DNA of 64,000 bases from Gammaproteobacteria bacterium. GTDB lineage: Bacteria > Pseudomonadota > Gammaproteobacteria > Arenicellales > Poriferihabitantaceae. Each line of letters starts with the position of its first letter. The first letter of the stretch is position 1. Of the stretch, positions 15,639 through 20,023 are shown one piece after another. A model generated the notes under the pieces. The model did no database searches, had not been told where the DNA came from, and saw only the letters and a list, made by a program, of their open reading frames with translations. Position numbers and translations under genes: made by a program. Where the stretch lies: contig JAPPPS010000089.1 of NCBI GenBank assembly GCA_028817405.1, forward strand, positions 9,947 through 73,946, given 5' to 3'.

Positions 15639-16457
15639 TCAGTCGACGGCGGGGATTTCCGCATCGCCGTCCACATCGGTGATGAGCATGTGGCCCGGTT
15701 TGTGGGTGATGCAAAGCGGCAGGCCGGCGCGCTCGATGGCGACTTGCGGGGTCACGCCGCAGGCCCAGAACACCGGCGTGCTCCCCGGCGCGACCGGCGC
15801 GGCGTCGCCCCAGTCGGGCGCGCCCAAGTCGTCGATGCCAATCGCGGCCGGGTCGCCGCAATGCACCGGCGCGCCGTGCGCGAATCGATAACGGCGCGAG
15901 ATGTTTGTCGCCAACTCGACTTGGTGCTCCGGAATGGCGCGCATGCTGACCACCATGCTGCCGCCGAAAGGCCCCGCGGTTTGCGTTGGGATATTGGTTC
16001 GATACATCGGCACCACTTTATTGTGCTCGATATGCCACAACGATACGCCGGCGTCTTGCAGCGCGTGTTCGAAAGTGAATGAGCAGCCGAGCGCGAAAGC
16101 GACAAAATCATCGCGCCATACCTCGGTGATGTCATGCGCGCTGCCGTCGAGCCGGCCGTCGCGGTAGATGTGATAGGCCGGCACATCGGCGCGGATGTCG
16201 ATGTCGCGGCCCAGCGCGCGCATGAACGGGTCGCCGGTGTCGGACACGCCCACCAGCGGGCACGGCTTCGGATTGCGTTGGCAGAACCGCATGAAATCCA
16301 GCGCATACTCGGCCGCCATAATCGCCACATTAACTTGCAGATTCCGCCCGCCCAACCCCGCGGTCTGCCCGCCGTAGTCGCCACCCCGAATCGCCGCGCG
16401 CACCACCGGCGCAGCAGCAGCGCGAAGGGATTCATATTCATTCATCTTCCGATTCAT
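15639..16457 (-). CDS. DUF1445/UPF0317 putative hydro-lyase (D-glutamate cyclase-like family)
   Basis: RGGDYGGQTAGLGGRNLQVNVAIMAAEYALDFMRFCQRNPKPCPLVGV...VFWACGVTPQ matches my memory of the DUF1445 family. An alternative ATG lies at 16445. Confidence 0.8.
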   Translation of the reverse strand: MNRKMNEYESLRAAAAPVVRAAIRGGDYGGQTAGLGGRNLQVNVAIMAAEYALDFMRFCQRNPKPCPLVGVSDTGDPFMRALGRDIDIRADVPAYHIYRDGRLDGSAHDITEVWRDDFVAFALGCSFTFEHALQDAGVSLWHIEHNKVVPMYRTNIPTQTAGPFGGSMVVSMRAIPEHQVELATNISRRYRFAHGAPVHCGDPAAIGIDDLGAPDWGDAAPVAPGSTPVFWACGVTPQVAIERAGLPLCITHKPGHMLITDVDGDAEIPAVD

Positions 16458-17997
16458 TTTCTTGCCGTTTGGATGAAGTGAACGCTTGCAGGGCGGCGGG
16501 GATGTCGTATTTGGATTCCGCGGCGGTGGGGGCGGCGGGGGCGGGGAGATATCCGCGGTTGGCTTTTTTGATTTGGTCGCTGAAAGCGAGCGCCATTTTA
16601 ACGCTGCTGTGGTTGAATTCCCGGCGCTGTTTGCTTACTTCCCTCACCACCGCATCGAACGAAACCGGGCGCTGCGTCCGGGCGAATTGCTCGCGCACGA
16701 TGCGCGGAATGGATTGGTACAAACCTTCCGCGGGCCGGAAATAACCGTGTTCCTTCAACCCATACACGCCTTTGACGCCTATCCACACGATGCCGAATTC
16801 TTCCTTGCCGGGTTTGGCGTACAGACTCAGCGCGTTGTGCCAACTGCGCGTCGATTTTTGGTTGTCCGGAAACAACGCATCGCATGTTTGCGCGATTTCA
16901 GCGTAATGCGCGGCGCGGCCCAGCGAGCGCAGTGCTTTGACAATCATGCGCGGCATGTTTTTGCCGGCGCGTTTTTCCCGCCGTTGTTCTTCCAGGTCGC
17001 CGAGTCGCTGCAGTTCGCGCGCCGGCAGAAAAGGCAATGCATCGGCGGCGGCGCAGCGACCGTCCGCTTCCGCCGCTTCATGCCGGTCGCGGCGCAAACA
17101 TTCCCGGTAATCTTTAACATGATTCGCGGGGCCGATGATTTGCGCATCGAATTCCGGCACCGACGTCGCATCCAGGCGAATCATCGCATACAAAAATCGC
17201 CGCTTCGGGGTGAGTTGCGAATTGGGAATCAGCAGCGCGCATCCGCCGCGCATAAAGTCGGCGATGAACGCCCACCACAGCGCCAGTTGAAAAGGCGACT
17301 GCGCGATGTGCCGCGACGCGTTGTTTTGTATCTGCCGAATGCGCTCGCGGGTGACATGATAATGCGCGCCTAATTGCGCCAAGGTTAAATGCGCGCCGTC
17401 GAGTCCGTACCGCTTGCGCATGATATCGGCCTGCTGTTCCGGCAACTGCGCCAACAGGTCATCGAGAATCGTGTCCAGAGTTAATCCCCGCAAACCATCC
17501 GGCGGCGACTGATGAAAGAACATCAACCGATACGCCTCCACGCCCGCGGGGTTCGCCTGCAGCAGCGTCGCCCACGGGAAAACCAACGCATCCGGCGCGC
17601 CGCCATCCGCGACCATGCCGGTTTGTCGGCCGAGGTGCAGCAGGTTGGCGGGCAAGGTATTCCAGCCGCGGCGGTCCAACGCCAGCGCCATCGCGGCTTG
17701 CAGTTGCGGCGGGCGCAGGCGGTTGATTCCGAGTCGCGCCAATCGCAGCGTATATCCGCACCACCACCGCAGCGCCGGGTCTCGGCCCAAGAAATATCCG
17801 CGCGATGCGCCGGCATGCAAGTCGCCCAAGAACATGATGTTTTGATTCAAGCAACTTATCCGCAACGCGTTCTCGACCGCCGGCGCGCCGCGCGACAAGT
17901 CAGCCAAACGCGCGACTTCATGCGCCGAGAATACGAACGGCCGCGCCGCCAACTCGCGGATGGCGTTCTCGGCCGCGTACTTTGCGCCGCGGTTCAC
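16438..17997 (-). CDS. Uncharacterised DNA-binding protein: unknown N-terminal region, sigma-70 region-4-like HTH, and a C-terminal HARE-HTH-like winged helix
   Basis: LPEQQADIMRKRYGLDGAHLTLAQLGAHYHVTRERIRQIQNNASRHI resembles RpoD region 4.2. MIVKALRSLGRAAHYAEIAQ...GVYGLKEHGY is HARE-HTH-like. The GTG start overlaps the upstream stop (GTGA, 17994-17997). Confidence 0.7.
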   Translation of the reverse strand: MNRGAKYAAENAIRELAARPFVFSAHEVARLADLSRGAPAVENALRISCLNQNIMFLGDLHAGASRGYFLGRDPALRWWCGYTLRLARLGINRLRPPQLQAAMALALDRRGWNTLPANLLHLGRQTGMVADGGAPDALVFPWATLLQANPAGVEAYRLMFFHQSPPDGLRGLTLDTILDDLLAQLPEQQADIMRKRYGLDGAHLTLAQLGAHYHVTRERIRQIQNNASRHIAQSPFQLALWWAFIADFMRGGCALLIPNSQLTPKRRFLYAMIRLDATSVPEFDAQIIGPANHVKDYRECLRRDRHEAAEADGRCAAADALPFLPARELQRLGDLEEQRREKRAGKNMPRMIVKALRSLGRAAHYAEIAQTCDALFPDNQKSTRSWHNALSLYAKPGKEEFGIVWIGVKGVYGLKEHGYFRPAEGLYQSIPRIVREQFARTQRPVSFDAVVREVSKQRREFNHSSVKMALAFSDQIKKANRGYLPAPAAPTAAESKYDIPAALQAFTSSKRQENESEDE

Positions 17998-18488: not shown

Positions 18489-20023
18489 ATCCCACCCCAA
18501 GCGGCGACAAAGCGGTCGACATAACTCGCGCCGTCCGAGGCCCGCATCAACTCGGCCTTGTCCAGCGCCACGCCGATGCAAAACATGCAGTAGGTCAGGC
18601 GCGCTTCGGCGCCGGTGATGCGGTTGCGGTAGGCGGTGTGTCCGCTGTTGATGACGATGGTGTTGGCGTTCAACCACGCGGTCTCCGGGCGCTCCGGATG
18701 GTCTTCAAAAGCGACGCGCGGACCTTGATGCTTGCGTGTGCGCCGCGGTTTGGTTTTGGTTTTGCCATCCGCATCGCGCTGCCGCGGTTGGCTGTCGCCG
18801 TCGCCGCCGCCGTTAACATCATTATCGTTATCGTCATCATCACCGTCATCATCACCGTCACCCGCGTTGTATTGCGATGCGCCGTTGTCTTCAACCGCGG
18901 ACGCGGCGATTTTCCCATCGATGCTTTTTTGCAACGCGCGCGACTTCGGAATCAAACCGTCGAAGTCCTGCAACTCCGGCAACTGCTGCACGATTTTTTG
19001 CATCTCGCGCTGCAACTTGCCGGACAACGGATTGTGCTGCGGCTTGGAGACTGTCACGCCTTGCGCTTCCAAAAACTTCCCCACCGCTGCGCGCGCCGCG
19101 TCGAGAATCTTGCCGAGTTGGCGCGCGCCGCCGACCCGGCCTTTGACCTCCGATTTGTTGGCGGTCAAGTATTCAATCAACGCGGGGATTTCAAACACGC
19201 CGTATAACTTCGCGCCCAACAGGCCGGTCGGCAAGTTGAAAGTTTCGGCCTTGATGACCTTGGCGTGGGTGCACAGCAACACGCCATAACGCTCGCCGTC
19301 AATCGGATGGTCGCGCGCCGACACGCCGAGCGCTCCCCATCCCACCGCGGTCGCGCCGACTTTGAGTTCCACATCTTCGCGCGTCATCAACGCCGCGCTG
19401 GATGACAAATCGGCGCGCGGAATTAAACGGCCGTTGACCGTAAACCTTGCGGCCGTCGGATAGAGTTTAATGCGCTCATAAGCGCGCACAAAATCGGTGA
19501 CAAACAGCGGCAAGTAATGGCGCTTCAACACCTCAACCAAATAACCGTCGCCGATGTTTTGCGGCAACCGTTTGGCGTCAAAATGAATCTCCACCCGCGT
19601 GCCGTCGGCGCGCAAGTGTTGCGGCGCAACCGGCCGCCACCGCAGCGTGCGGTCCGCGCCCCAATACCAGTCGGATGCGCGCCGGTTGCCGTTGTGCCGG
19701 GTCTCGGTCAGCACCCGCCGGGCGATGTTGAAACTGATTTTCGCGCCAACGCCGGCGAAGCCGATGCCGTCGCCGCGGGTTTTAAGTTCCGCCGCCAAGT
19801 CATGGTACTGCTCGAATTCATCCGCGCGCATGCCTTTGCCGTCGTCGCGCATCACGAGAATGTTGGCGGCGGCGTTCCAGTCGATGTCGATGGCGCGCGC
19901 GCCGGCGTCGAGCGCGTTGGCGGCCAGTTCCGCGACCACCACATCGAAAGTTTCATCGTGGTACATGTCAGCCAAATCCGTGACCAACTTCTTGAAGTTT
20001 ACCCGGCTGTGTTTTTCCCGCAT
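18485..20023 (-). CDS. GHKL (Bergerat-fold, MORC/HATPase_c_3-like) ATPase with an uncharacterised C-terminal region
   Basis: N box ELAANALDA, G1 DDGKGM, G2 GIGFAGVGAK. ATG at 20023 (MREKHSRVNFKK); TTG at 20041 is also possible. Acidic insert GDGDDDGDDDDNDND. Confidence 0.8.
   Translation of the reverse strand: MREKHSRVNFKKLVTDLADMYHDETFDVVVAELAANALDAGARAIDIDWNAAANILVMRDDGKGMRADEFEQYHDLAAELKTRGDGIGFAGVGAKISFNIARRVLTETRHNGNRRASDWYWGADRTLRWRPVAPQHLRADGTRVEIHFDAKRLPQNIGDGYLVEVLKRHYLPLFVTDFVRAYERIKLYPTAARFTVNGRLIPRADLSSSAALMTREDVELKVGATAVGWGALGVSARDHPIDGERYGVLLCTHAKVIKAETFNLPTGLLGAKLYGVFEIPALIEYLTANKSEVKGRVGGARQLGKILDAARAAVGKFLEAQGVTVSKPQHNPLSGKLQREMQKIVQQLPELQDFDGLIPKSRALQKSIDGKIAASAVEDNGASQYNAGDGDDDGDDDDNDNDVNGGGDGDSQPRQRDADGKTKTKPRRTRKHQGPRVAFEDHPERPETAWLNANTIVINSGHTAYRNRITGAEARLTYCMFCIGVALDKAELMRASDGASYVDRFVAAWGGM

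Follow-up and report, generated by a model that had tools for sequence, protein, structure and literature searches.

ATPases that join a GHKL module to an S5-like domain have been described in restriction-modification (R-M) operons together with methylases and superfamily 2 (SF2) helicases, where no sigma-like partner is mentioned, and the same work gave GhXhhpXXRhl as a motif specific to MORCs within their S5 domain (Iyer et al. 2008, PMC2292703). The mzaABCDE operon is a validated anti-phage system and carries a sigma-like protein with a region 4 (PMC9523054). Here, we analyzed a unit of three genes, hereafter referred to as the triad, in a 64,000-nucleotide (nt) stretch of contig JAPPPS010000089.1 from a Gammaproteobacteria bacterium (the window), in which a GHKL ATPase (gene 1), a small orphan protein (gene 2) and a winged-helix protein with an embedded sigma-70 region 4 (gene 3) are encoded one after another on the minus strand (Table 1). 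No named defence system matched the triad in PADLOC 2.0 or NCBIfam (June 2026), where only domain-level matches to MzaA and MzaB were obtained, and no triad combining a GHKL ATPase with a sigma region 4 was found described in a literature search; a first-pass annotation of the stretch, made from the letters alone, had likewise recognized no named system. We found that the triad is a conserved but rare unit that moves as one between unrelated genomic sites and phyla and, judging from sequences and structure models, is probably a new, unnamed and nuclease-free variant within the GHKL-based conflict systems.

The three open reading frames (ORFs) are coupled by 4-nt GTGA overlaps, and the coordinates and junctions of the first-pass annotation held without change. 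On the minus strand, gene 1 ends in ...GGG ATG TGA with gene 2 starting at GTG 18488-18486, and gene 2 ends in ...GAG CGG TGA with gene 3 starting at GTG 17997-17995; the start of gene 1 was assigned to ATG 20023 because homologues begin with MQE or MRE there. The same gene order with overlapping or near-abutting junctions was recovered in 13 genome or contig loci, comprising chromosomes of metagenome-assembled genomes (MAGs) of Dehalococcoidia, Caldilineaceae and Arenicellales together with several metagenome contigs. Using family hidden Markov models, we detected genes 2 and 3 in all 32 loci in which gene 1 was close or mid-distance and was followed by 2.1 kb of sequence or more; three apparent exceptions proved to be artefacts of greedy ORF choice. 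Clustering of neighbouring ORFs over 92 loci returned genes 1, 2 and 3 as the only recurring families, with no fourth or fifth conserved gene beside them.

The families are small and under constraint. In a collection of 5.8 billion proteins, homologues formed about 50 clusters for gene 3, 142 for gene 2 and 433 for gene 1, none of which carried a meaningful name in any source, and a scan of JGI metagenomes added at least 506 further gene 1 relatives. The ratio of nonsynonymous to synonymous substitution rates (dN/dS) against a 97%-identical relative was 0.10 for gene 1, 0.46 for gene 2 and 0.22 for gene 3, and against a 72-83% relative the triad genes ranged from 0.22 to 0.32; all three genes are under purifying selection. 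The distribution is patchy across phyla, with gene 1 sharing 50-57% identity between Proteobacteria and Chloroflexota, and in almost every locus, the 72%-identical L003 among them, the triad has different neighbours. On a contig 97% identical to the window (L096), the upstream binding-protein gene and the triad are shared, and similarity ends exactly after the stop codon of gene 3 (L096:5751-6152 versus window 16437). The sequence of L096 past this stop holds a remnant resembling an insertion sequence (IS), which by eye only is like the C-terminus of an IS1595-type transposase. A further IS was seen in a Dehalococcoidia MAG (CBDBDE010000003.1; L013:8017-9347), in which an insertion of about 1.3 kb splits gene 1, leaves genes 2 and 3 intact and encodes on the opposite strand a 314-residue transposase assigned by eye from its translation to the IS3 family (rve-type). 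A lower GC content of the triad, noted in the first-pass annotation, was not upheld (61.2% versus 63.6% +/- 3.5 for 3.6-kb windows), and foreign origin argued from GC was rejected, the difference being insignificant with 22% of same-size windows lower; GC content at third codon positions was slightly below that of neighbouring genes.

We next considered gene 1, which by its sequence and modelled fold is a GHKL plus S5 ATPase of the Hsp90/MutL/MORC/paraMORC architectural class with the catalytic set intact, because its motifs are invariant, its family profile matches Hsp90 and its model superposes on the N-terminal and middle (N+M) domains of TRAP1/Hsp90. Pfam assigned HATPase_c_3 (1.6e-12) and HATPase_c (9e-7), and the translation contains ELAANALDA, DDGKGM and GIGFAGVGAK; residues E32, N36, D39, D60, G62, G64, G88, G91, G93 and K95 of the ATP-binding fold, as well as K255 within THxKVIK of the S5-like domain, are invariant in 68 family members. 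The best sequence matches of the family profile in the PDB were Hsp90 N-domains (1.8e-7). In the AlphaFold2 (AF2) model, the predicted local distance difference test score (pLDDT) was 75.6, with low values limited to the ATP lid and a 77-residue linker, and Foldseek placed TRAP1/Hsp90 N+M domains first (6.8e-15, 320-400 aligned columns) with the MORC3 ATPase lower (1e-11). The Bergerat-fold ATPase of the first-pass annotation therefore stands, but its label 'MORC-type' was imprecise, since Hsp90/TRAP1 N+M domains outrank MORC3 in both sequence and fold; gene 1 is also not an equivalog of any named GHKL plus S5 member in NCBIfam. The roughly 350 further residues that could not be assigned from the sequence alone are present and now resolve into the S5-like middle domain, the disordered linker and a small C-terminal domain. 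The linker begins Asp-rich and continues with basic KTKTKPRRTRK, and its length varies in the alignment; compared with homologues, the gene 1 of the window has an extra Asp/Asn-rich low-complexity insertion here (18790-18860, residues ~388-412; DDDNDNDVNGGGDGD). The C-terminal domain is strongly conserved (QGPRVAFE..ETAWL..INSGH.AYR..LTYCMF.IGVALDKA) and may serve dimerisation or partner docking.

Gene 3 contains a sigma-70 region 4 of the housekeeping type within a protein that, on its sequence and predicted structure, is not a sigma factor, in line with the first-pass annotation, which had noted region 4 as near-canonical and region 2 as missing. Pfam Sigma70_r4 (PF04545) matched gene 3 at 6.4e-12 and was found in 44 of the 44 family members, and the family profile matched region 4.1-4.2 of RpoD/SigA in the PDB at 2.2e-24. 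At about 38% overall identity, T216, R217, E218, R219, R221 and Q222 of the recognition helix VTRERIRQI are invariant or nearly so; the translation here includes LTLAQLGAHYHVTRERIRQIQNNA. We take these residues to be the counterparts of R584, E585, R586, R588 and Q589 of E. coli sigma-70, which read the -35 hexamer. Sigma region 2 (PF04542) had no match in gene 3 or in any of the 44 relatives at E<=10, Pfam detected region 4 as the only sigma region of gene 3, and the model places winged helices where region 2 would be. Gene 3 cannot act as a sigma factor, because regions 1.2, 2 and 3 are absent and the remainder consists of winged helices.

The AF2 model of gene 3 (pLDDT 86.7, predicted template modelling score 0.70) is a string of winged-helix or helix-turn-helix (HTH) domains around region 4, and whole-chain Foldseek returned SigA region 4 first, followed by the tandem winged helices of the SelB C-terminus, RPC62 and UFL1/DDRGK1; BFVD gave no significant structural match. 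The N-terminal region was modelled with elements H3-17, H25-31, H39-50, E54-58, E68-71, H72-89, H96-107 and H117-125 (H, helix; E, strand) and has W78, W79, G123, P141 and W142 invariant. The best Foldseek targets were engineered chimeras of SigA region 4 with the beta-flap tip, matched near full length (8d5v_B, 102 columns and TM-target 0.79; 7kuf_B, 0.80). Because these chimeras match over nearly their whole length, the helix at residues 234-250 may fill the groove of region 4 that receives the beta-flap-tip helix of RNA polymerase, and region 4 would then be held in a DNA-binding conformation without the polymerase. Outside region 4, conservation peaks in the winged helix at residues 348-414 (LRSLGRAAHY.EIA..C..LFP...GIVWIG.KG.YGL.EHGY), which in the model is a generic winged helix of three helices and a beta-hairpin. 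The first-pass annotation had called this domain HARE-HTH-like, an identity for which three sequence tests were negative: PF05066 had no match in the 44 family members at E<=10, a profile of residues 343-424 returned nothing relevant to HARE-HTH in the PDB, and hhalign against the N-terminal domain of B. subtilis RpoE delta gave a probability of 0.5%. At the C-terminus, a disordered segment is followed by an amphipathic helix (residues 499-510 in the model) with I499, A502, A505 and F506 conserved, which may function in docking. On one metagenome contig (Ga0307378_10004280; L047:7515-10496), gene 3 continues in frame, with no intervening stop codon, as a complete primary-type sigma factor, with residues 599-993 matching B. 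subtilis SigA at 5e-117, and this is either a real fusion or an assembly artefact.

Gene 2 had been described as lacking any recognizable motif, and this remained so in Pfam, NCBIfam, PADLOC and the PDB, where neither the family nor its remote relatives were matched, apart from weak hits of two remote relatives (P0391 and P0395; 5e-6 and 6e-4) to PDC-S02, which belongs to the single-gene defence-candidate models of PADLOC; the gene 2 family itself had no match to PDC-S02. An exhaustive HMMER scan of 1.84 billion proteins yielded 131 representatives. In the loci examined, gene 2 always lies between genes 1 and 3, and its dN/dS is 0.27-0.46. The remote relatives (180-290 residues) carry the same domain at the N-terminus and are likewise unannotated. 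The sequence of gene 2 may show a pattern reminiscent of DUF1016_N. We suggest that gene 2 may be an adaptor.

The genomic context of more distant relatives connects the triad with R-M-like operons and defence genes. Triads with a mid-distance gene 1 (33-38% identity), which came from sediment and groundwater metagenomes, sometimes have defence genes as immediate neighbours: a type I HsdR gene (E=0) lies 15 nt upstream of the triad in L037 and L038, and the triad adjoins a DrmMI-like (DISARM-like methylase) or type IIG-like enzyme in L050 and L052, a GajA-like (Gabija-like) OLD nuclease with a UvrD-like helicase in L047, and a DUF262 protein with an Upf1-like helicase in L048. At 27-30% identity, distant gene 1 homologues are followed by a weakly gene-2-like small ORF and lie within R-M-like operons. 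In two such four-gene operons (L068:3914-10459 and L081:4043-10453), a type II/III-like methyltransferase is followed by a GHKL ATPase that shares 27-28% identity with gene 1, a 152-residue gene-2-like ORF and an 830-residue protein with similarity to type III Res-like helicases, and neither the ATPase nor the small ORF in them matched a PADLOC model; in L058, L060 and L080, type IIG enzymes lie upstream of the distant gene 1 relative. These results suggest that the triad descends from the GHKL ('paraMORC-like') machinery of R-M-type conflict systems. Gene 3 was not found in the R-M-like operons, and the triad is therefore a distinct architecture, not a truncation.

We also inspected the region upstream of gene 1. 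In 10 of the 12 loci other than the window, a perfect TTGACA precedes the gene 1 start by 62-82 nt (-62 to -64 in L001, L002, L004, L006, L011, L012 and L013; -77 and -79 in L008 and L009; also in L005), accompanied by a -10-like element at proper spacing in Chloroflexota and Arenicellales loci, against a background of 0.21 per kb per strand. The window has a -35-like hexamer, TTGAAC, at 20090-20085 (67 nt 5' of the gene 1 ATG), and a consensus scan of the window found no strong promoter. Since TTGACA is limited to one clade and absent from the mid-distance loci, there was no support for a general autoregulatory -35 site, and we rejected autoregulation of this kind.

On this evidence, we tentatively favour, at a little less than an even chance, the reading that the triad is a mobile, nuclease-free conflict module, whose gene 3 would target promoter-like DNA for the ATPase to act on. 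The three products would form one complex: gene 3 would provide target recognition by reading -35-type promoter-like duplex DNA, without RNA polymerase because its internal helix would fill the beta-flap-tip groove; gene 2 would bridge the products of genes 1 and 3; and gene 1 would dimerise upon ATP binding and clamp or remodel the DNA or complex so bound. The unit includes neither a nuclease nor a toxin or methylase, and its output is therefore predicted to be non-degradative, namely occlusion or silencing of transcription on incoming DNA or, less likely, sequestration of the transcription machinery. Gene 3 may have replaced the methyltransferase and Res-like helicase as the DNA-recognition element, as suggested by the distant ATPase-small-protein pair, which works with these two proteins instead. 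Several points weigh against this conflict module. The single complex, the -35 reading and the helix in the flap-tip groove are steps that we infer; the triad contains no recognizable effector domain; no relatives were found among viral contigs in IMG/VR or plasmids in PLSDB; and the upstream TTGACA is confined to one clade. Moreover, the defence neighbours of mid-distance triads come from only a handful of loci, and the closest clade (MAGs of Dehalococcoidia, Caldilineaceae and Arenicellales), like the window itself, shows housekeeping or metabolic neighbours with almost no PADLOC matches. The conflict system proposed in the first-pass annotation is supported by relatives in R-M-like operons or beside HsdR, DrmMI-like, Gabija-like and DUF262 genes, but not by the window and its closest relatives.

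Those housekeeping neighbours are among the observations that would fit a host transcription-control module, in which gene 3 regulates by binding promoters or competes with the primary sigma at the -35 element, the GHKL ATPase switches gene 3 and gene 2 is their partner, in loose analogy to GHKL anti-sigma and partner-switching triads (SpoIIAA-SpoIIAB-sigmaF), serving host physiology and not defence. The invariant reading residues of region 4, the cassette's own consensus promoter in one clade and the apparent in-frame fusion of gene 3 to a complete primary-type sigma factor at one locus point the same way, as do two Caldilineaceae species that carry the triad in similar flanks and for that reason suggest vertical inheritance. 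We nevertheless consider host control unlikely, if by no means negligible: the family is rare (131 gene 2 representatives) and patchy across phyla at 50-57% gene 1 identity, nearly every genome has a different insertion site, relatives lie within R-M-like operons and beside defence genes, and gene 1 matches HATPase_c_3/Hsp90-like models and not a SpoIIAB-type kinase, with no STAS protein present.

An improbable alternative, to which we would give less weight still, is a decoy or guard, in which region 4 of gene 3 mimics the primary sigma and is bound by phage sigma-appropriating or anti-sigma proteins of the T4 AsiA or phage G1 ORF67 type, and the binding is relayed via gene 2 to the GHKL ATPase to cause growth arrest or a transcription block. 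Region 4 is indeed of the group-1 (RpoD/SigA) type and reaches into the tail after region 4.2, it sits within a non-sigma protein, its PDB matches include sigma region 4 bound to phage ORF67 and to regulators, some relatives have a defence context, and the MZA defence system also has a sigma-like protein with region 4 (PMC9523054). However, conservation is strictest on the DNA-reading helix and not obviously on anti-sigma contact surfaces, the four to five further winged helices argue for DNA binding, and no effector is known. The last alternative, that the triad is what remains, without function and in decay, of a larger R-M-like or MZA-type operon after loss of its methylase, helicase or nuclease genes, would account for the extra partners in distant relatives, the missing effector and the gene 1 split by an IS3-family insertion in one MAG. 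It is very improbable and largely refuted by the conservation data, given the same three intact genes in 32 of 32 loci, dN/dS of 0.1-0.46, catalytic and DNA-reading residues invariant across ~38-55% identity, and an architecture distinct from the R-M-like operons, in which gene 3 was not found.

If the triad is a working conflict system, GHKL/paraMORC machinery could run without a nuclease, methylase or helicase by means of a sigma-derived, promoter-reading element for targeting or sensing. It would then offer a tractable three-gene model for the action of prokaryotic MORC-like ATPases on DNA, help to clarify the so far unexplained sigma-like component of the validated MZA system, MzaA, and define two presently unannotated families, gene 2 and the parts of gene 3 outside region 4. 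We regard as doubtful the proposition that the triad provides nuclease-free immunity or silencing through a captured housekeeping-sigma region 4, used as a -35 reader or as bait for phage proteins. As a reader, region 4 may recognize consensus -35 elements on invading DNA and load the Hsp90/MORC-like ATP clamp, shutting transcription; as bait, it may detect phage sigma-appropriating proteins. The silencing version, if true, would be a prokaryotic counterpart of MORC-mediated silencing, and a host regulator would instead represent an unusual recruitment of a sigma domain into an ATP-driven transcription switch.

In the window, the triad is flanked by a gene for an SBP_bac_5-like binding protein and by a DUF1445/TRAP operon, and a search for mobile-element boundaries found no direct or inverted repeats around it. 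The gene downstream of gene 3 encodes a 272-residue product, DUF1445-like from translation only, and heads an apparent TRAP-transporter operon. This gene begins (ATG 16457 or 16445) within the final codons of gene 3 (16438-16457), and the triad may therefore share a transcript with an unrelated catabolic or transport operon here. Elsewhere in the window, a plus-strand ORF (22105-23457) is MutY-like by translation and has a Pro/Glu/Ser-rich N-terminal repeat (PPEVSPPPETSP...) with internal SQPSPPAKP-type repeats, unusual for MutY. No tRNA, tmRNA or Rfam family reached threshold anywhere in the 64 kb.

Table 1. Features of the triad, in positions of the window; residue numbers refer to the respective protein, and H and E denote modelled helices and strands
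Feature	Position	Strand	Description or basis
Leader upstream of gene 1, 71 nt intergenic, possible promoter	20024..20094	-	Weak
Gene 1	18485..20023	-	GHKL + S5-like ATPase, Hsp90/paraMORC-like, 512 residues from ATG 20023
Gene 1, Bergerat ATP-binding fold, residues ~25-150	19574..19951	-	N-box E32/N36/D39, G1 D60xGxG64, G2 G88..G91xG93xK95
Gene 1, S5-like transducer/middle domain, residues ~155-345	18989..19561	-	AF2 secondary structure, Foldseek, invariant columns
Gene 1, disordered linker, residues 356-432	18728..18958	-	pLDDT < 50
Gene 1, C-terminal alpha/beta domain, residues 435-511	18491..18721	-	Strongly conserved; AF2 elements
Overlap of gene 1 stop and gene 2 start, GTGA	18485..18488	-	
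Gene 2	17994..18488	-	Orphan protein, 164 residues from GTG 18488
Overlap of gene 2 stop and gene 3 start, GTGA	17994..17997	-	
Gene 3	16438..17997	-	Multi-winged-helix protein with embedded sigma-70 region 4, 519 residues from GTG 17997
Gene 3, N-terminal region, residues 1-165, read as two winged-helix-like domains	17503..17997	-	AF2
Gene 3, sigma-70 region 4.1-4.2, residues 166-232	17302..17502	-	Pfam Sigma70_r4 PF04545, 6.4e-12
Gene 3, helix after region 4, residues 234-250, LALWWAFIADF	17248..17298	-	Foldseek matches to SigA-r4/beta-flap-tip chimeras
Gene 3, winged helix, residues 348-414 ('HARE-HTH' of the first-pass annotation)	16756..16956	-	AF2 H348-359, H365-375, H383-393, E403-405, E411-414
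Gene 3, second C-terminal winged helix, residues 426-485	16543..16722	-	AF2 H426-441, H447-457, H463-472, E476-479, E482-485
Gene 3, C-terminal short conserved helix and acidic tail	16441..16515	-	YDI.AA..AF

Compared with known systems, gene 3 shares regions 4.1-4.2 and the TRERIRQ helix with the primary sigma factor RpoD/SigA, from which it differs in having winged helices in place of regions 1.2, 2 and 3. For gene 1, Hsp90/HtpG/TRAP1 provided the top structural and PDB-sequence matches over the N-terminal and middle domains; the C-terminal region is different, however, the operon partners are DNA-binding proteins, and the match to the NCBIfam HtpG model (PRK05218) reached only 18.4 bits against a cut-off of 371. 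A conceptual likeness links the triad to SpoIIAA-SpoIIAB-sigmaF and CapK-CapS (PMC13373217), in which transcription is controlled by a GHKL protein encoded alongside a small partner protein and a protein that is sigma-related or binds DNA. Unlike the ~145-residue serine kinase SpoIIAB, gene 1 has 512 residues and is of the HATPase_c_3/Hsp90 type with an S5 domain, and, in further contrast to the SpoIIAA-SpoIIAB-sigmaF system, the triad has no STAS domain and gene 3 is not a sigma factor. CapK/CapS itself was rejected as a match, having another GHKL type, a STAS partner and other sizes. The MZA system (mzaABCDE; Gao et al. 2020) resembles the triad in joining a GHKL ATPase (MzaB) and a sigma-70 region 4 protein (MzaA) in one operon, and its similarity is confined to these domains. 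In PADLOC, gene 1 matched MzaB over residues 29-112 only (6.3e-5), and NCBIfam NF041932 gave 21.4 bits versus a cut-off of 850; gene 3 matched MzaA models at 7.5e-13 (NF041931, 48.2 bits versus a cut-off of 800) through region 4 alone, with residues 166-231 aligned to positions 635-701 of the 726-position NF041931 model; gene 2 had no Mza match in PADLOC or NCBIfam. Within the MORC and paraMORC group, gene 1 is nearer in sequence and fold to Hsp90/TRAP1 than to MORC3, and, unlike paraMORC R-M systems, the triad lacks a methylase, helicase and nuclease and has a sigma-region-4/winged-helix protein as the partner. In the window, no DNA methylase, SF2 helicase or endonuclease is associated with the triad in an operon, nor is such an association a conserved feature of triads; it was seen only in the distant loci L058, L060, L068, L080 and L081. 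The triad nevertheless shares with paraMORC and MORC proteins the GHKL plus S5-like module, extended at the C-terminus in a family-specific way, and the sporadic, laterally mobile distribution (Iyer, Abhiman & Aravind 2008, PMC2292703), and methyltransferases and SF2 Res-like helicases accompany its distant gene 1 relatives (27-30% identity), just as described for paraMORCs (PMC2292703).

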